From an uncultured Lachnospiraceae bacterium (lineage in GTDB: Bacteria; Bacillota; Clostridia; Lachnospirales; Lachnospiraceae), in the NCBI GenBank assembly GCA_910589265.1, contig CAJUTQ010000074.1:14353-78352 (forward strand): a stretch of DNA of 64,000 nucleotides, in the 5' to 3' direction. The notes beneath the pieces were generated by a model. It ran no database searches, was not told where the DNA came from, and saw only the letters and a list, made by a program, of their open reading frames with translations. Positions 11,154-40,172 of the stretch are shown one piece after another. The position numbers and the translations under genes are program-made. Within the stretch, counting starts at the first letter, position 1. Every line of letters begins with the position of its first letter.

Positions 11154-13178
11154 TTACACCATGCTTTTGACGTGTTCACCTCCGCCAATTACATAGTTGC
11201 TATAATCAAGGGAAAAGTTCACATTAAAATAAGGATCTCCCTTTTCAAGGTGTTTTTTCCACTTTTCCCGAAAGCGGGCACATTCTTTTTCGTAACGTTC
11301 TCCATTGGTCTTATTGGCAGAATCATCGTCCCTTCCCCTGGATTGAGATTCATAATGAAAGAGTTCTGCAAAGGGAGTAAATATATTTAAATATCCTTTC
11401 TCCCTTAACTTCAAACAAAAATCCACATCATTTAAGGCTACTTTGAATTCCTCATCCAAGCCTCCTACCTCTTCATATTGCTTTTTAGATACCATCATAC
11501 ATGCACCCGTCACTGCTGTCACGTTTTGCGCATAGCAGAGACGTCCCATATATCCTAAATTATCTTTTCCCATTTTATAATGGGTATGCCCTGCCGTTCT
11601 ATGGGCTCCAAGTCCAAGGACAATCCCAGCATGTTGTATTGCATAGTTTCCATAATAGAGCATGCAGCCGACAGCTCCTACATCTTTTCTCTGGGCATAC
11701 ATAAGTAATTCTTCAATCCAATTTCTTGTCACAACTTCCGTGTCATTATTTAACAGTATTAAGTATTCCCCCTTTGCTTCCTTCTCACCCATGTTGTTCA
11801 CAGCTGAATAATTAAATTCTTTCTTCCAATGAAGCACCTGAATACGGGGATTTTTTTCTATTTGTTCATAATACACAAACGTCTCTTCTTCTTCACTATT
11901 GTTTTCCAAGACAAGTATCTCATAATTATCATAAGAACTTTTTTCCAATATAGAATTGATACACCGCTCTAGCTCTTCTCTATGATCCTTATTCGGTATC
12001 ATAATGGATATTTTCGGATTTCCCAAAATAGCATAGCGGATGCGGAAAATAGTTTCAAAGGCTCTGGAACTTTCTATTTTAAAATTTTGAAATCCACTGG
12101 AAGTCAAGTGAGCAGCCACTGCGCCTTTTGCTGCATCAATGGCATAAGACTTAGCCTGTATATCTGATGCAACGCTTCCTGCATGAGAACGCCAATAATA
12201 AAGCATCTTTGGAACATGGACAATATTCTTTGCCTCCGCTGTCAGCCGCAATACCATGTCGTGATCCTGGCTCCCGTCAAATTTACTTCGAAACAATTCC
12301 TTTCCTTCCAATAGTTTGGAAGAAAAGACAGAAAAATGGCAAATATAATTATTTGCCCTTAGATTATCAATGGCAAAATCTGGTTTAAAGTGCATGGTAA
12401 CCATATCGTTTATACTATTTCCCTGAAAGGTTGTCTCGTCGCAATATATGTAGTCTGCATTTTGATCACAGATTACTTTCATGTATTCGTAGAGAACACA
12501 CGGATGAAGAATGTCGTCATGGTCAAAAAGCCCTATATATTCTCCTGTGGCCAATTGGTAACATATATTCGTATTCCCTGAAATACCTAAGTTTTTCTCA
12601 ATTTTCTTATACTTTATACGGGAAGCTCCTCTGTAAGAGTCATTATCCCTATACTGGCAGCAAATACGTCCTACTTCCTCATGTTCCTTGTCCGAACCAT
12701 CTCCTAAACATAGCTCCCAGTTTTCATAAGTTTGCTCCAGTACAGACTCTATCATTTCCCGTAAAAAGGATTCTGGCGTATTGTATAAAGGTACAAGAAT
12801 ACTAAATGTAATATCTTTTGAAAACAAAGTATCCCTTTGTCCTTTCCTCACCTCCTCAGTAGGGAAGCTTCCTGTTCCATACATCTCATAAGCCTTTCTC
12901 TCAATCATCTTGCTTTTCACTTTTTTTATAAAACTTTTAAGATTTGGATAACGTTTAATGCGAATAAATAAATTTTTAAAATGGCTCCATGCCAGCCGAA
13001 ATGGATAAACCATTCTCCATATTTTACTATTATGAATATTGTCTAAGTGAAATTGGGCATCCGCTGCTTTCTGTTCTGCAGCTACAAGCTGTTCTGTCAA
13101 TTCTTTGCTTTTTTTCATCTCCCTTTTATACAAACTTTTGTAATATTCCAGTTGTGCATGTAAGTCTTCCTGATTCAT
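11154..13178 (-). CDS. Two-domain GT2 glycosyltransferase with N-terminal coiled-coil (polymerising type)
   Basis: 674 aa. The N-terminus MNQEDLHAQLEYYKSLYKREMKKSKELTEQLVAAEQKAADAQ is heptad-like. GT-A domain 1 has FSILVPLYNTPESFLREMIESVLEQTYENWELCLGDGS and domain 2 has ISIMIPNKDHREELERCINSILEKSSYDNYEILVLENNS. Confidence 0.85.
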   Translation of the reverse strand: MNQEDLHAQLEYYKSLYKREMKKSKELTEQLVAAEQKAADAQFHLDNIHNSKIWRMVYPFRLAWSHFKNLFIRIKRYPNLKSFIKKVKSKMIERKAYEMYGTGSFPTEEVRKGQRDTLFSKDITFSILVPLYNTPESFLREMIESVLEQTYENWELCLGDGSDKEHEEVGRICCQYRDNDSYRGASRIKYKKIEKNLGISGNTNICYQLATGEYIGLFDHDDILHPCVLYEYMKVICDQNADYIYCDETTFQGNSINDMVTMHFKPDFAIDNLRANNYICHFSVFSSKLLEGKELFRSKFDGSQDHDMVLRLTAEAKNIVHVPKMLYYWRSHAGSVASDIQAKSYAIDAAKGAVAAHLTSSGFQNFKIESSRAFETIFRIRYAILGNPKISIMIPNKDHREELERCINSILEKSSYDNYEILVLENNSEEEETFVYYEQIEKNPRIQVLHWKKEFNYSAVNNMGEKEAKGEYLILLNNDTEVVTRNWIEELLMYAQRKDVGAVGCMLYYGNYAIQHAGIVLGLGAHRTAGHTHYKMGKDNLGYMGRLCYAQNVTAVTGACMMVSKKQYEEVGGLDEEFKVALNDVDFCLKLREKGYLNIFTPFAELFHYESQSRGRDDDSANKTNGERYEKECARFREKWKKHLEKGDPYFNVNFSLDYSNYVIGGGEHVKSMV

Positions 13179-35198: not shown

Positions 35199-35375
35199 AT
35201 GATGTATTACCTCTATAAGACTATTCTCCTTTCTATTACAATAGATTTATAGTTAATGTTCCTTACTGTCACTAAGAAATTATTCATTTTATTGCATAAA
35301 CTGCTAGAATATATAGAGATAAATCAGCCTCCTTTCTTAGACTTTACATCTGTTTTTTAGACGGATAACTAGCTC

Positions 35376-35620
35376 TTATGTATAGTGTTCATTACAGGAC
35401 AGCCTTTTATCAAAAAGGCGTTCAGCAATAGCCCTGCTGTATTTATATGACAACAGGCTCCAATAAATTTTTTCGAATTTACTTTGGGATGAGAGAAAAA
35501 TATCTTTCTTCTCTGCCAAAATCAAATAAAACTCATCTCCATATTTTCAGACCAGCACTGGAGTGAGCGTCTTGTTTTGAAACCTATTTTCAACCTCTAC
35601 AAAATCTTCAAGGTCCTTAA
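35376..35620 (-). pseudogene. GGDEF-domain (diguanylate cyclase-like) gene remnant
   Basis: Manual minus-strand translation gives LKDLEDFVEVENRFQNKTLTPVLV*KYGDEFYLILAEKKD...AIAERL. This echoes DxDxFKxxND...R(Y/L)GGDEFxxLL but with an in-frame stop, a degenerate GGDEF motif and no N-terminus. Confidence 0.3.
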
Positions 35621-35835
35621 AATGTATCTTTAACTTTTTACTAACAGACTAGGGCATATTTTTTATAAAATAACATGTAAAATATAATCTTCATTACTTT
35701 TTATGATATTAACATATATAAATATTATAATCAACAAATTCTTATTTTTTATCCCTCTTTCCTTAATTCTATTACAAATTCTAATATAGATGGATAATGG
35801 TAGTAAAACTTAATCATAATAGTTACAGAATACCC

Positions 35836-36241
35836 CTAACATTTATAATTTAACATAGAGATTAATCCAAATGAGGCTAGTCTATCATTACTGACTGCCA
35901 TGTATACATCTCTACAGTAACCAAGCTTTGCATATCCCTTAAGATATACACTTTTCCATGCTGACCATGATAGTATACCCAGTTTAGTCAGATTCTTTAC
36001 TCTGTTCTGTGGAGCTTTCCAATGTTTCCAATTACACATTCGAATTCTATAGCAAATTTTTGAATCAAGCTTTTTGTAAAGTGTTTTCACACTTCCTATA
36101 AGGTATTTTACTCCTTGTGGTTTATCCGTTTTACTCTTAGTCATCTTCACCTTTCATCCCTGTTTCTCTTCGACCAATCAGGATATATTTCTCATTACTC
36201 TATTTGCAGACATTTCACTTTCACCAATAATGATACAGTAA
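35836..36241 (-). pseudogene. Intron B reverse transcriptase/maturase, C-terminal fragment (post-YADD region and X/maturase domain)
   Basis: It resumes right after intron A as DDF|TVSLLV then, after a frameshift, ESEMSANRVMRNIS...KVKMTKSKTDKPQGVKYL...RIRMCNWKHWKAPQNRVKNLTKLGI...KGY...AVSNDRLASFGLISMLNY. These are maturase hallmarks; an internal deletion and stops are present. Confidence 0.7.
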
Positions 36242-36274
36242 GTAGACCAGAGGCTCCTCCCCTCAAGCCTCTCA

Positions 36275-36309
36275 GAACTGTGCATGAACCTCCTCAGCTC
36301 ATACAGCTC
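36275..36309 (-). ncRNA. Group II intron domain V of intron A
   Basis: The minus strand reads GAGCTGTATGAGCTGAGGAGGTTCATGCACAGTTC. It has a 5' AGC triad and a GAGCTGT/ACAGTTC basal helix, and matches the GAGCCGUAU...ACGGUUC consensus architecture. It directly follows the RT-A stop codon. Confidence 0.7.
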
Positions 36310-37144
36310 CTATCGTTCATCTGCTGGTAGTATTCTAAATTTCCAGTATGTAAATAGGTTCCTGTCGCACTTTCCTATCTCTCCAAGCCAATGTTCCGCC
36401 TTGCGCTTCTTATACTTTCTCTGCACCCATTTCACTAGACATTCATTAATATACCTCATCCCATCCTATATTTCTGATTTATAGAAATACATGTAGTAAT
36501 GAATCCATCCCTGTATCTGTCAGTTGAAACTATTTGCTATATCGTAAAGGTCTCTGTCCAATTTTAATTGCAGTTTCCATCTTCTTATTCCTTTGCATAT
36601 AGCTTTCTTTACTTTTTCACTCATTGCTGGAAAGAAGTTTATAAAGCTCCCCCCGTATCTGTTCTTTGCATGTCTTGGACGGAATATATATCCTAGAAAA
36701 TCAAAAGAGATATTCTTATGATTTCCTCTCTAGTCATCATCTTTGCAGTACACTATCCTTATTTTTCCTAATTCAGTTTCAGACCATAACTCTAGAATCT
36801 CTGTTCAAACCTTCTTTGCAGATATTTCGCCTGTTTCTGGGAGTCGCAGTGCGCTATCCCATCATCGGCATTTCTTGCCCACGGTATCATCGGAAATTTC
36901 TTTACCATGAAATCATCAAACACATAGTACAGAAACAAGTTCGCCAATACTGGACTTATCACTTCTCCTTGCAGGGTGCCAGATGATATCCTATTCCATA
37001 TTTTGTAGAGGTTATTATTCAGTCTCCTCTCAAAATTTTCTATGAACTGTTCGTCCACAACATAGGTTCCCTTGTTCGCTTTCATTCTTTGATAAACTGC
37101 TACCACTACTTTTTTGAAATACTGTATGGCTTTGCTTCTTGCAT
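36310..37144 (-). pseudogene. Intron A reverse transcriptase, internally deleted and frameshifted
   Basis: ATG at 37144 follows GAAGGAGG: MQEAKPYSISKK, then a frameshift to VAVYQRMKANKGTYVVDEQFIENFERRLNNNLYKIWNRISSGT, then a jump to QGEVISPVLANLFLYYVFD...ARNADDGIAHC. RT domains 1-4 are missing. Later fragments read DFLGYIFRPRHAKNRYGG...QGWIHYY...WKFRILPADER*. Confidence 0.75.
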
Positions 37145-37658
37145 AAGTTCCTCCTTCTATAAAGTTGACTTATCCTTAAAGCCGGATAATTCGGGTTCTT
37201 CACTTTGTTCCTATTGCAGGAACTTCTACGCTACTACAACCCAATTTGCCCACATGGCTACATCGTTACTCTTATCTTACGGTTCTTCCGCTTGATATTA
37301 CTCCCTTAACATCAGCCTGTGGGTTCCCACGTTACGTACAGACACCTGTGTAAAGTTCATGCCGCCTTTATACCGCCCACTGTCTGGACAGTAAACAGCT
37401 TTTCCTCCAGACTTATCCAAGGATAACGACTAACCCCTAGTTCTGATGGAATCTCCACACTTTCGACATTTCCGTAAGCGGTTCATATGTTCCTTCATCT
37501 CCTTCACACTCACCCGACAGTTAATAACTGCCTTTTCCCTAACACTTGGTACCATAGCTTTTGACTACAGCACCTTAGAGTGGTTTGGAGCCTCCACTAT
37601 CATCTGTACAGCATATCCATCTTCAAATAACTATGCTACTTGTCGCCTTCGTGGCGCA

Positions 37659-38380
37659 CAGTCGTCCGAACACCTCACAAACCTATGCCCTCTGCGTGTC
37701 AGTTCCCTGTCTAGTTCATTCAGCATAGCATTACTAAGCAATGAACTTGTCGGTCCGCCTTGGGACATTCCTGTTTCTATCTTTTCGAATATCCCCCTGC
37801 TAATGACTACTTCTTTGAGATATTTATGTATCAGCGATATTGCCCTCCCGTCTACTATGGTCTTTGATAATATTTCTGGCAATTTGTTCTGGCATACCAT
37901 ATCAAAGAATTTCTCTATATCCATGCCCACAACATTCACATATCCATCATCAGCATTCTGCTGACATTGTTTTAGGGGATCATGCACACCTCTCTTTGGT
38001 CGAAAGCCAAAACTGTTTTCCGAAAACTATTCCTCATAGACTAGGGACAGCACCTGTATGATTGCCTGCTGGAATACCCTGTCAACTACTGTCGATACTC
38101 CCAGTCTTCGAAATTCGTCTTTTGTTTCTTTGGGTATCTCTACCCTGCGGGCTGGATTGGATCTGTATTTCCCATCCTTTAATTGCTGAATTAGGCTCAC
38201 TTGGTTATCTCTCAGGAACGGTAGAAACTCATCCACGTTCATCCTATCGCCACTGCTTGCTCCTTTTATTGGATTTCACTTTCTTGTATGCATTATTTAG
38301 ATTAGTCGGCTGTAAAATCTTCTCCAACAGTCTGTCCGTCTGAAAGTCTGTGATGATATGGTTGTTTAATGCGAACTCCT
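37659..38380 (-). pseudogene. Intron B reverse transcriptase, N-terminal fragment (RT domains 0-5)
   Basis: LLEKILQPTNLNNAYKKVKSNK, then a frameshift at the A-run near 38264, GASSGDRMNVDEFLPFLRDNQVSLIQQLKDGKYRSNPARRVEIPKE...LGVSTVVDRVFQQAI, a second frameshift near 38000, then FRPKRGVHDPL...GMDIEKFFD...GMSQGGPTSSLLSNAML...FVRCSDD. No intact start codon. Confidence 0.75.
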
Positions 38381-38756
38381 TTCCCAATGCCAGCCCCTAA
38401 CAGGCGTACACTTCTACATACTCTTTCGATTCCGTCGATACCTTTTGTAGATAGTCCTCAATATGTAGTTATCTATCCTTAAATCTATCATTAGTTACAG
38501 TCCTTCTACTCACATCTCCTAAAGTTCAGTCCTTCCCATCATGTTTGCAACTACGATGGTACTATGACCTCTGCTGACTTTTCGCCATTCGTTGTTACTA
38601 CAGTTTTTACTTAGTTTCCGTCTGCTGATGAGGCTTCTGTTGGTATCACACATTTCTTTCTCTCCACCTATTTAGTTTGTGTTGCAACCTCGTCCTTAAC
38701 TCTAGCCTGATGTGATTTCTGTACGTCAGACCAGAGATTTGTCAACGTTATGCGAA

Positions 38757-38784
38757 GCTTCGCATAATGTAAATTATGAACAGT
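38757..38784. repeat. 28-bp dif-like recombination site (11-bp arm, 6-bp spacer, 11-bp arm)
   Basis: GCTTCGCATAA TGTAAA TTATGAACAGT matches E. coli dif as I recall it (GGTGCGCATAA TGTATA TTATGTTAAAT) at about 21/28 positions. It matches remembered B. subtilis dif at about 20/28. Confidence 0.5.
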
Positions 38785-38871
38785 ACGTTATTATGCAAAG
38801 TTGAGTCCAAATTTTGTTGGATTTCTTACGGTATGGACTCTTTTTAACTTCGCATAATTCGGAATCACTCC

Positions 38872-39766
38872 TTACAAAGATTTGAGCCAATCAAGAAGAT
38901 CTTTATCCTTTTTCCATGCTGATAGTTTGTCAGATGAGGGACTACTATAAGCTTCCATCAATGCTTTACATTTCATTTTTTCATCTGACTGGACGTAAAT
39001 CTCGGTTGTTGAAATAGCAGAATGTCCCAGTAAATCTCTGATATAAATAAGATTGACACTGGATTAAAGCAGATGCATTGCCTTACTGTGCCGCAGCCAA
39101 TAAGGTGGAATCTCACCGGATATGTCTTTTACTCCGGCGGCCTGAGCTTGTTGAGCATATTTTTTCAAAATATATGTTACCCTGGCTCTTGTCAGTGGTT
39201 TATTTCCACGATTAGTGAACAAATGGTTACGGCTAATGCAGGCAAACACAATTCTGCCCCTTCCATATACTATTTCCTAAGTTCGCTGATATCAATACAA
39301 AGATAGGTCATTGTTGTTTCGGTAGTTGTATGTCCCAGGATTTGCAACATAACAGGAAACGGAATCTCATGTTCCATCAAACGGCTTGCAAGGCTGTGGC
39401 GAAGCGTATGGGATCCTTTCTTTTTCTATAAAACCATTCTCATGGTAGTATTTCAGATAATATCGTACCGCACGCATTGTATGATTTATGGTTGGTTTTT
39501 CATAACAGCTCAAAGATATCATGAAATCCAAAACATCTTTAAGAGACAATGTATCCAGAGAAGAACTATTTCTCTTCTTTAAAAAAGGCAAAAAACCTTT
39601 CCAGATATAAACGGAAAAACTGATTCGATTTTTTGATGATTCCGCTTTTCTCCCAATAGGAAATATATGCTTGTGCGCTGTCTTTGAATCCTTCGGGGAA
39701 GGTATATGTTCTTTTATCCATAACAAGATAAAGAGTGACATTTCCTGAACGTTGGTATTCTGCCAA
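38872..39766 (-). pseudogene. Tyrosine recombinase/integrase, multiply disrupted
   Basis: The fragments are the N-terminal SAM-like domain (39766-39367, one frameshift), LFTNRGNKPLTRARVTYILKKYA...PYWLRHSKAMHLL, an in-frame TAA at 39064-39066, then SSVNLIYIRDLLGHSAISTTEIYVQ. These carry the HxxR, GH and catalytic Y boxes. Confidence 0.75.
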
Positions 39767-39984
39767 AGCATTTATACAACGGGAATAGGCTGTACACCAT
39801 TTTTTCTGCTTGATTTTCTATGACATGGAATAATGCTCTTCTAAAAACTGTAATCCAAAGTCCATGCTAAAAGAATCCGTATTGTGTTCCTCCTTAAGTA
39901 ATTTGATAAAAATACACTTAAATCGTGATGGATTATGGAAAGTACATCAACCAAAGAATGCTTTATTCATAAGGATTTTTATCG

Positions 39985-40015
39985 CCAACTTTGCATAATG
40001 TGTAGCTTTTCATAA
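39985..40015. repeat. Terminal half-site pair of the recombinase element
   Basis: CCAACTTTGCATAA TGTGTA GCTTTTCATAA: two ...CATAA half-sites separated by 6 bp. They belong to the same motif family as 38748-38803 and 38846-38857. Confidence 0.5.
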
Positions 40016-40134
40016 CCGACACCTTCCTTCAGATTCCACCTCACGATGGGTGCCTTGGTATCGGCTGTATCCTTCCCACTATTAGGGCGGATTTAGGACT
40101 TTCACCCACTAGATACGTGCGCCACAAGGCATAC

Positions 40135-40172
40135 AACAAAAGGCCAATATTCTATGAAATGAGAACATTGGC
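40135..40172 (-). terminator. Intrinsic terminator of the dehydrogenase gene, and insertion target of intron B
   Basis: Minus strand GCCAATGTTCT-catttcat-AGAATATTGGC forms an 11-bp stem with one G-U pair, followed by CTTTTGTT. The intron 5' end GTATG starts at the next nucleotide (40134). Confidence 0.7.

Follow-up and report, generated by a model that had tools for sequence, protein, structure and literature searches.

Organisation of the locus

The stretch of DNA analysed here, which we call the window, comprises 64,000 nt of contig CAJUTQ010000074.1 in assembly GCA_910589265.1 (positions 14,353 to 78,352 of the forward strand), and all positions given below are window positions. Downstream of a gene for a 442-aa nucleotide-sugar dehydrogenase (41589-40261, minus strand) lies a nested wreck of three mobile elements: a putative class C group II intron (intron B), the remnant of what appears to be a RIT (recombinase in trio) element inside domain I of that intron, and a second group II intron (intron A) inside its reverse transcriptase (RT) gene. 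All features of the wreck are on the minus strand, where they follow one another in the order terminator, 5' part of intron B, RIT remnant, resumed intron B, intron A and end of the intron B RT gene (Table 1). The presence of all of these pieces, far beyond chance, is confirmed. We consider it highly probable that the wreck is a fixed scar without activity, in which three site-directed insertions, each ordinary in itself, took place one after another and deletional decay followed.

We searched for group II introns with Rfam models, using gathering thresholds over the 64-kb window and then relaxed thresholds. The gathering thresholds returned two group II pieces, RF01999 at 37512-37612 (56.8 bits, E = 9e-09) in intron A and RF01998 at 38529-38602 (48.1 bits, E = 1.4e-05) in the resumed part of intron B. 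Relaxing them added RF00029 at 36237-36311 and RF02001 at 39997-40050, the latter with 27.5 bits and with the middle 127 model positions absent, split by an insertion. RF02001 and RF01998 supply, for the two halves of intron B, the intron-model matches that the initial annotation of this DNA had proposed to look for.

The terminator of the dehydrogenase gene has a predicted RNA fold of -14.1 kcal/mol (z = -5.0, with none of 200 dinucleotide shuffles as stable), and its hairpin is followed directly by the T-tract CTTTTGTT at 40142-40135. Intron B starts at the very next base, 40134, with GTATGCC...GGGTGAAAGTCC...GGAATCTGAAGGAAGG. Terminator stem-loops are the usual target of class C introns, and this hairpin is the DNA stem-loop target of intron B.

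Table 1. Features of the wreck and of the adjoining seam, in minus-strand order
Feature	Positions	Strand	Evidence or remark
Intrinsic terminator hairpin of the nucleotide-sugar dehydrogenase gene	40172-40143	-	Terminator scan; 11-bp stem
Putative intron B, first 119 nt of domain I	40134-40016	-	Collinear with intact L021/L022 and L036; partial RF02001 match
RIT-like remnant, 1274 nt of about 3460	40015-38742	-	Terminal inverted repeats, integrase domains, intact relatives
RIT left inverted repeat	40015-39986	-	30 nt
Remains of first recombinase gene	39889-39272	-	Phage_integrase C-terminal domain
Third recombinase gene, C-terminal 133 codons	39271-38875	-	Phage_integrase C-terminal domain
RIT right inverted repeat	38803-38774	-	30 nt
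Palindromic right-end module, 32 nt, last 6 nt the duplicated core	38773-38742	-	
Intron B resumed, rest of domain I through domain IVa, starting CAAATCTCTGGTCTGACG	38741-38346	-	blastn to L021, RF01998, alignment A1
Intron B RT pseudogene, N-terminal part, motifs 0-5	38345-37660	-	Three-frame translation; Pfam RVT_1 (E = 6e-26); class C RTs in PDB
Intron A, 1423 nt	37659-36237	-	RF01999, RF00029, 414-aa RT family
Intron A domains I-IVa	37659-37145	-	
Intron A putative EBS1 (AGTCGT)	37431-37426	-	
Intron A RT pseudogene, ATG at 37144	37144-36310	-	Lacks RT motifs 2-4; several stops
Intron A domains V/VI	36311-36237	-	RF00029
Intron B RT pseudogene, C-terminal part, (C)IIIGESEMSANRVM... through thumb	36236-35836	-	7uim residues 332-419; blastn to L021
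AT-rich non-intron DNA, seam	35835-35252	-	blastn against L045-L059

The outer intron

The first segment of intron B ends ...GGAATCTGAAGGAAGGTGTCGG at 40016, broken off by the recombinase element after 119 nt as had been annotated initially. Its continuation was fixed by an intact relative in locus L021, which came to light fortuitously because an intact copy of intron A lies in it. In blastn, window position 40016 corresponds to L021 position 2575 and window position 38741 to L021 position 2576, and in an alignment of the two (A1) window 40134-40016 pairs with the first 121 nt of the L021 intron and 38741 onward with the bases that follow. In the intact relative, then, nothing separates the two halves, and the proposed collinearity across the gap stands; the point of resumption moves from 38747 to 38741, the bases 38747-38742 being the duplicated core of the RIT. 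The L021 intron itself starts GTTTGCC, scores 137 bits with RF02001 and 40 bits with RF01998, and carries domain V/VI directly after the RT stop. Introns of this kind begin right after a terminator of their own in L021/L022 and L036, and the intron start likewise follows the locus's own terminator in L128, L131 and L132.

The RT gene of intron B survives as a pseudogene in two parts. The N-terminal part is damaged by a single frameshift and a single in-frame stop; its last residues are ...RGHRFVRCSDD, after which one base of the following codon remains. The C-terminal part, with two in-frame stops and a deletion of about 180 nt in the thumb, ends ...GLISMLNYKC and a stop, about 8 codons before the normal stop. 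Stitching together the frames that flank intron A gave a protein of 376 aa that matches Pfam RVT_1 and GIIM. Among solved structures it is closest to the Eubacterium rectale RT 7uim (E = 4e-93), followed by 5hhj (Roseburia intestinalis), 5hhl (E. rectale) and 6ar1 (GsI-IIC, Geobacillus); the class C RT structures span E = 4e-93 to 1e-59, with LtrA and T.el4h far weaker matches. The second stretch aligned to 7uim (residues 332-419) implies that about 58 thumb residues were deleted. No residue is gained or lost where intron A intervenes, FVRCSDD/CIIIGESEMSANRVM in the window aligning with FVRYADD CIIMVGSEMSANRVM in 7uim (a slash marks an insertion junction here and below) and, in a longer reading, FVRCSDD-CIIIGESEMSANRVMRNIS with FVRYADD-CIIMVGSEMSANRVMRNIS; the RCSDD of intron B would derive from RYADD. 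The E. rectale intron is of class C (PMC10190682). A search of genome contigs with patterns from the stitched RT, taken from mutated stretches, returned distant RTs of 28-47% identity and one 68% fragment, and no close intact relative of intron B.

The position behind the terminator, the RT similarity and the type of domains I-IV all agree with class C, and on this similarity and context, rather than on a phylogeny, we take intron B to be probably a class C intron lying directly behind a terminator, as the initial annotation had proposed. Domain V/VI does not contribute to the assignment. No second domain V was found between 35000 and 41000 or in the whole 64-kb window with RF00029 at E <= 0.1, and a degenerate class C domain V pattern allowing 3 mismatches had no match in the 64 kb, in agreement with the earlier remark that domains V and VI are missing. 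Intron B is without domains IVb, V and VI and without its 3' exon junction; lacking domain V/VI, it is a truncated class C remnant and not a functional member of the class.

The inner intron

Intron A has a canonical GTGCG 5' end and a domain V/VI that scores 33 bits with RF00029, below the gathering score of 40 and the 56.5 bits of its intact relatives. Those relatives are 1867 nt long; compared with the L021 copy, the window intron has lost 406 nt of RT sequence (motifs 2-4) and a 29-nt hairpin of domain I, and it retains neither a complete RT nor a complete catalytic core. The GTGCGCC intron with a domain V that had been annotated initially is thus present, with its start moved from 37658 to 37659 and its end from about 36242 to 36237; several of the earlier coordinates were off by 1-6 nt.

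The stitched RT of intron A has thousands of intact relatives of 414 aa, the best of them (P0001) at 76% identity, and over its retained part it shares 62% amino-acid identity with the RT of B.th.I3. P0001 is 79.2% identical in amino acids to the ltrA product of the B. thuringiensis plasmid pBTHD789-2, its closest annotated relative, whose intron, which is B.th.I3, interrupts an RT-domain gene at ACTAGGTATGCTGATGACT/. Five copies of the ribozyme align with 86% mean column identity (alignment A2). Another relative of this RT, P0002, is encoded on ten contigs; where both flanks are retained, its intron interrupts a class C RT gene with a single exception, and at least two genomic neighbourhoods are represented. 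The junction there reads ...TATGCAGATGACT/GTGCGCC...CTTACT/GCATAATA, that is YADD/CIIM, or in codons ...CGG TAT GCA GAT GAC T/GTGCGCC......GGTCTACTTACT/GC ATA ATA ATG. Plasmids of C. estertheticum, E. faecalis and B. thuringiensis (B.th.I3) also carry introns at this RYADD site, and the 5' exons end AGGTGTTCGGACGACT/GTGCGCC in the window and TATGCAGATGACT/, TATGCTGATGACT/ (B.th.I3), TATGTTGATGATG/ and TATGCAGATGATT/ in relatives.

Dai and Zimmerly reportedly described homing into intron open reading frames (ORFs) in 2003. The target of B.th.I3 is an RT active site, AGGTATGCTGATGACT, encoding RYADD (Tourasse & Kolsto 2008, PMC2504315, section 13), and the RYADD-targeting B-like introns B.th.I3, M.a.I5, UA.I3 and P.l.I2 form twintrons (PMC2504315; review PMC4424553). 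Intron A shows the AGGTATGCNGATGACT-type 5' exon, composed of intron-binding sites IBS2 and IBS1, the homology to B.th.I3 and the pairing of exon-binding sites (EBS) with the target, and probably belongs to the published B.th.I3/M.a.I5/P.l.I2 lineage. An intron placed within the active-site codons of another intron's RT, which the initial annotation had thought unusual, is a published homing site (PMC2504315; PMC4424553) at which intact relatives also sit; the intron-in-YADD nesting is known as a pattern of homing, and its hosts here are class C introns of Firmicutes.

The hairpin-loop sequence AGTCGT is invariant in the five copies and pairs at 6/6 positions with ACGACT in the window and, with one G-U pair, with ATGACT elsewhere, and GCATA is complementary to TATGC in relatives. 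By complementarity and position, we read AGTCGT as the probable EBS1 and GCATA as the probable EBS2. Across six sites, GTGYG is preceded by T, T, T, G, C and T, ...TTAC is always followed by a T (6/6), and the host frames are restored only if this T belongs to the intron; we therefore infer that introns of this lineage end ...ACU. With that end, the restored exons of the window read GAC GAC TGT ATC, or D D C I, so that the flanks rejoin as DD-C(IIIGESEMSANRVM) and the DDF reading given earlier was one base off. The ligated exons of an intact twintron of the L021 type would be predicted to read GATGACTGCATA.

Two relatives of intron A call for a remark. In L028 (1-1950) an A-type intron follows ...AGGTATGCAGATGATC, the RYADD codons, with a 3' exon (TCTTTTGTAGACCGG...) that is not recognisably RT-coding, either a truncated target or an ectopic site. 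In pBTHD789-2 (L042, record 135824-140969) genes for a SLOG-family protein and a GIY-YIG nuclease come after the non-intron RT gene that B.th.I3 interrupts, a neighbourhood reminiscent of defence-associated RTs; the host RT gene of B.th.I3 has been described as a possible novel retroelement (PMC2504315).

The recombinase element

The interval between the two halves of intron B is bounded by 30-nt terminal inverted repeats (TTATGAAAAGCTACACATTATGCAAAGTTG and its partner, 77% complementary) and holds two separate Phage_integrase C-terminal domains. Homologues of the first recombinase protein are few and mostly fragments. The contigs encoding one of them, P0155, carry an intact element of about 3.46 kb with the same inverted repeats, between which three tyrosine recombinase genes (about 405, 328 and 337 aa) overlap one another. 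All three recombinases are simple and Xer-like, with sub-threshold similarity to the NCBIfam families XerC, XerD and XerA. RIT elements are defined by three tyrosine recombinase genes of 315-410 aa and 34-bp inverted repeats (PMC10214605; PMC3414803; PMC8138268), with subgroups RitA, RitB and RitC, of which RitA has two core-binding domains and RitC an extra C-terminal helix (PMC8138268). Three genes are found in the intact elements of L034-L038 and L128 and no longer in the window copy, which has kept inverted repeats in the range of about 30-34 bp with the same ends as in L034, L036 and L128. Against the L036 element the window copy breaks up into four blocks, with deletions of 128, 444 and 1608 nt between them. 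By the gene trio and inverted repeats of its intact relatives, the element matches the published definition and is best read as a RIT remnant. The recombinase element that had been placed in the gap initially is thus there, more exactly as the remnant of a three-gene element that keeps remains of two genes. We also considered a two-gene Tn554-like element and an element exploiting Xer/dif, and rejected them on the three genes and inverted repeats of the intact relatives. A blastn search of PLSDB plasmids with the recombinase element gave no match.

The insertion sites of this RIT family fall into two kinds. In L034 and L035 the RIT interrupts the P-loop codons of parA, CAAAAGGGAGGTGTGGG/RIT/CAAGACCACAACC (QKGGVG/KTTT), in L037 and L038 it occupies the same parA site in opposite orientation, and in L031 and L032 it is found at AATCAGAAAGGCGGAACAGG/, in L031 within parA P-loop codons. 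In the window, L033 and L036 it follows GAAGGAAGGTG(T/G/C)(C/A)GG/ in domain I of a class C intron. Five more contigs came from scanning metagenomes for the junction between domain I and the inverted repeat; together with L036 and the window they place this junction behind at least six different terminators. L128 represents the undamaged state: a complete RIT of 3468 nt at the same position, with RF02001 model positions 1-32 before it and 33-165 after it, followed by RF01998, the intron continuing beyond the insertion. The domain I site GAAGGAAGGTGTNGG^CAA resembles the parA P-loop site AAAGGGAGGTGTGGG^CAA at 15/18 bases (the caret marks the insertion point), and a search of the 10.4-kb L021 locus with the 18-nt parA site, allowing up to 3 mismatches, gave a single match, at 2561-2578, which spans the insertion point between 2575 and 2576 (0.01 expected by chance). 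The L036 copy, which sits in an intron, shares 98.8% identity with the L034 copy, which sits in parA; the other intron-borne copies are 79-86% identical to that of L034.

On the right, the inverted repeat of the RIT is followed by a palindromic block of 26 nt and then, once more, by the hexanucleotide that stands just before the left end (TGTAGG in L128, TGTGGG in L034). Such a duplicated core would be expected from a tyrosine recombinase with a 6-bp overlap region, and circularised ends would then read ...CATAA-N6-TTATG..., a lox/dif-like core. We conclude that this RIT probably inserts repeatedly and site-specifically into two look-alike targets, the window copy being one such event and not cargo of the intron. 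The presence of a RIT in class C domain I is recurrent and site-specific, at no fewer than six terminators, and the nesting of a recombinase element in domain I, singled out at first as unusual, is not. No target specificity was reported in the accessible RIT literature, and the dual target, parA P-loop and class C domain I, is apparently the one new point of this analysis.

Several details of the RIT loci deserve record. The 32-nt module at the right end (window 38742-38773; L034 8810-8841; L128 about 12106-12137) consists of a 26-nt near-palindrome with a TTATGYGAAG/CTTCRCATAA core (here the slash separates the two arms) and the 6-nt target core, and its first bases resemble the reverse complement of the core. 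L031 (1-1450) and L032, both from human gut metagenomes, contain a second and different RIT/class C wreck in which the RIT left end lies in parA P-loop codons and a shortened first recombinase gene continues in frame into the C-terminus of a class C RT, followed by domain V/VI (RF00029, 48.9 bits). L036 (3574-7130) has two different RITs in tandem in one class C domain I, with a junction, CATAA-CAGGGC-TTATG, that fits a 6-bp spacer between recombinase-binding arms. In L130 (3986-4170), and also in L129, a 5'-truncated class C domain I with the RIT junction is directly preceded by the domain V/VI of another intron (RF00029, 41.4 bits). About 1 kb upstream of the terminator of the L128 composite of intron and RIT lies an azaaromatic (yjdF) riboswitch aptamer (L128 7471-7595; RF01764, 75 bits).

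Fixation and genomic context

The two flanking genes lie 5066 nt apart, and nine independent assemblies (from ENA, NCBI metagenome-assembled genomes and JGI) cover this whole distance at 99.94-100% identity. The products of the two genes are MCI9138222.1 and MCI9138223.1 in a metagenome-assembled genome of a Lachnospiraceae bacterium. Every ORF within the wreck is decayed, as had been annotated, with stops, frameshifts and deletions in the RT genes of B and A and in the recombinase genes.

On the far side the wreck passes into AT-rich non-intron DNA. Positions 35753-35656 are 78% like intergenic DNA of an alternative allele (L045-L059), a further 404 nt of AT-rich DNA (35252-35655) had no counterpart in any sequence examined, and 99% homology to the alternative allele begins at 35251. 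Strains with the 611-aa alleles P0187 and P0188 can carry, in place of the wreck, a 77%-identical dehydrogenase gene and six glycan genes (among them an aminotransferase, an acetyltransferase and an epimerase gene) up to the gene for the 611-aa protein. Allele P0187 occurs both with the wreck and with the six-gene cassette, which puts the wreck at the edge of a strain-variable cassette. The description of the wreck as a seam between two glycan loci is therefore apt, in that it marks the boundary between strain-variable and conserved blocks of glycan genes.

Gene callers applied to the metagenome-assembled genomes predict proteins of 134, 172, 118 and 102-104 aa at 39367-39771 (minus), 37446-37964 (plus), 37631-37987 (minus) and 35836-36150 (minus); these are frame-shifted remnants or antisense ORFs, and hence annotation artefacts. 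Several short-read assemblies end contigs exactly at 37142 (in intron A) and 38016 (in the intron B RT gene), which suggests near-identical intron copies elsewhere in those genomes or communities. Across the window 42 of the 44 ORFs of at least 150 aa are on the minus strand and the GC skew is uniformly negative, and the G+C content rises from 28-35% in the adjacent glycan genes to 37-42% in the wreck.

Alternative explanations

The wreck can be read in other ways. Both RT-like regions match RVT_1 and GIIM, and with all ORFs broken the gene boundaries are not obvious from the ORFs alone, so that a single intron with one rearranged RT gene, or introns in tandem rather than nested, might be imagined; the initial annotation had named a shared ORF as the result that would overturn it. 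However, when joined, the outer fragments follow a single class C RT through the junction residue for residue, the inner part has its own GTGCG, RF01999 region, 414-aa-type RT and domain V/VI, and intact relatives are nested in the same way with both RTs complete. The RT gene of B is thus cut after ...RCSDD by a second and different intron, as first annotated, and the single-intron reading, already refuted, retains a negligible probability. A chimera of assembly or binning, joining repeats of different genomes, would fit the contig breaks at 37142 and 38016, which indicate similar repeats in those samples, but the nine independent assemblies span all 5066 nt at near-perfect identity, so that the wreck is not an assembly artefact and such a chimera is scarcely credible. 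It is also conceivable that the wreck has been co-opted, as a substrate of recombination for swaps of glycan cassettes or as a transcriptional insulator or spacer between loci: it lies exactly where strains differ, P0187 is found with either the wreck or the six-gene cassette, 99% homology resumes at 35251, and the wreck is perfectly conserved within the lineage. We think this very unlikely. The 0-3 differences in 5 kb equal those of the flanks and require no more than recent common descent, no intact recombinase, RT or catalytic core is present, the orientation is identical in all assemblies, and the homology breakpoint at 35251 lies about 585 nt outside the wreck.

The alternative with more in its favour is that the RIT travelled as a passenger, having entered one class C domain I once, after which the composite retrohomed to many terminators. 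This would explain the identical domain I position, the same orientation and the single related intron subfamily behind at least six different terminators. Yet the near-identity of the L036 and L034 copies, against 79-86% for the other intron-borne ones, indicates recent movement between the two types of site, the domain I site is the only sequence in the L021 locus that resembles the parA site so closely, and a core of 6 bp occurs twice, the pattern left when a tyrosine recombinase integrates. Moreover, an insert of 3.5 kb that parts the two strands of a helix in domain I (at RF02001 positions 32/33) should disable the ribozyme. We therefore regard transport as cargo as improbable and prefer repeated, site-specific insertion of the RIT.

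Certain observations weigh against this account of three site-directed insertions. An empty site, with the terminator followed directly by the downstream sequence, for which the initial annotation had proposed a search, was not found in related genomes: in exact-protein look-ups with both flanking genes, all contigs with the same dehydrogenase allele carry the wreck, and the alternative allele, reached through variants of the 611-aa cluster, is a different cassette whose 77%-identical dehydrogenase gene has no terminator there, and so not an empty site. The assignment of intron B to class C draws on similarity and context, domain V being absent. In the window IBS2 (TGTTCG) no longer pairs with EBS2, both EBS2 (GUAUA) and IBS2 (UGUUC) having drifted, and the two core copies of the RIT do not match (TGTCGG and CGTTGA); both the lost pairing and the mismatched cores may reflect later decay. 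The canonical GUGYG...AY ends would leave one extra T at intron A, and the ...ACU end is drawn from six sites only. A circular or attP junction of the RIT (GCTTCRCATAA-N6-TTATGRAAAGCTA) was not found in viral contigs or in 132 loci, and the mobility and target specificity of RITs have never been shown experimentally (PMC10214605, table note; PMC3414803).

Proposed history and significance

The anatomy of the wreck, the homologies of its parts, the recurrence of both insertion sites and its fixation are observed directly. The history we propose takes as established the biology of class C introns, the EBS-IBS-guided retrohoming of endonuclease-less introns and the action of tyrosine recombinases, from which we infer the insertion mechanisms. 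Intron B would have reverse-spliced into the DNA just 3' of the dehydrogenase terminator stem-loop. The endonuclease-less intron A would then have retrohomed into the RT gene of B, its EBS1 (AGUCGU) and EBS2 (GCAUA) pairing with the R-Y-A-D-D DNA, and the RIT would have been integrated into domain I of B by site-specific recombination, with duplication of the 6-bp core TGTRGG at its right end; these two insertions may have occurred in either order. Deletions would afterwards have removed most of the RIT, RT motifs 2-4 of intron A, part of the thumb of the B RT and the 3' end of B (domains IVb-VI), and the stops and frameshifts would have accumulated after the insertions. We see no evidence for a present function of the wreck, which is presumably without one.

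The wreck is thus made of known kinds of element, and both invaders target such introns habitually. As dead DNA it leaves the biology of group II introns unchanged, and its value is that of a worked example of layered parasitism. It also marks a recombination boundary between alternative glycan cassettes, useful for strain typing, and it is a caution for annotation, at least four spurious proteins being predicted inside it.

The lead worth following is the site-specificity of the RIT. At slightly better than even chances, we would extend the interpretation to RITs of gut Firmicutes in general, as active site-specific integrators with a lox/dif-like core (CATAA-N6-TTATG) and two alternative targets, the parA P-loop codons on conjugative elements and a conserved domain I motif in one subfamily of class C introns. 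Class C introns would then regularly give 'safe harbour' to two unrelated parasites, RITs being lodged in domain I and RYADD-homing introns in the RT gene. If true, this would give a RIT family, for the first time, a defined target and evidence of recent mobility, and a recurrent site with a 6-bp core makes RIT integration directly testable.

Comparison with known systems

Like the characterised class C introns (7uim/7uin, 5hhj, 6ar1), intron B lies immediately 3' of an intrinsic terminator in sense orientation, has a small domain I that is collinear with intact terminator-associated relatives, and encodes an endonuclease-less RT closest to the class C maturases. It differs in being a remnant with two interruptions, whose RT gene carries stops, a frameshift and a thumb deletion and which can neither splice nor move. 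Intron A agrees with the B.th.I3 lineage in its place after ...GAYGAYN of the RT active-site codons, in its similar ribozyme with an invariant putative EBS1 and in the lack of an endonuclease domain in its type of RT. Unlike intact members, it is without RT motifs 2-4 and the 29-nt domain I hairpin and has a domain V/VI below the Rfam threshold. Its host RT, here as in L021-L027 and L043, is a class C RT of gut or clostridial Firmicutes, whereas the hosts published for the lineage are either related introns, from archaea or Photorhabdus, or a retron-like RT.

The intact relatives of the recombinase element have the three adjacent, overlapping recombinase genes, the roughly 30-nt terminal inverted repeats and the length of about 3.5 kb of the known RIT elements (Van Houdt 2009/2012, PMC3414803; Ricker 2013). 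In contrast to the latter, they occur in gut Firmicutes rather than alpha- or beta-proteobacteria, and they have a defined target, duplicate a core of 6 bp and carry an additional palindromic module at the right end, the window copy keeping only parts of the first and third genes. The nearest parallel to the wreck as a whole is provided by the nested intron arrays of Methanosarcina acetivorans (PMC4424553), which share with it repeated site-specific homing into group II introns in intergenic DNA, where no host gene is at stake. Here, however, the third layer is a DNA recombinase element and not an intron, and all layers have decayed instead of cycling.

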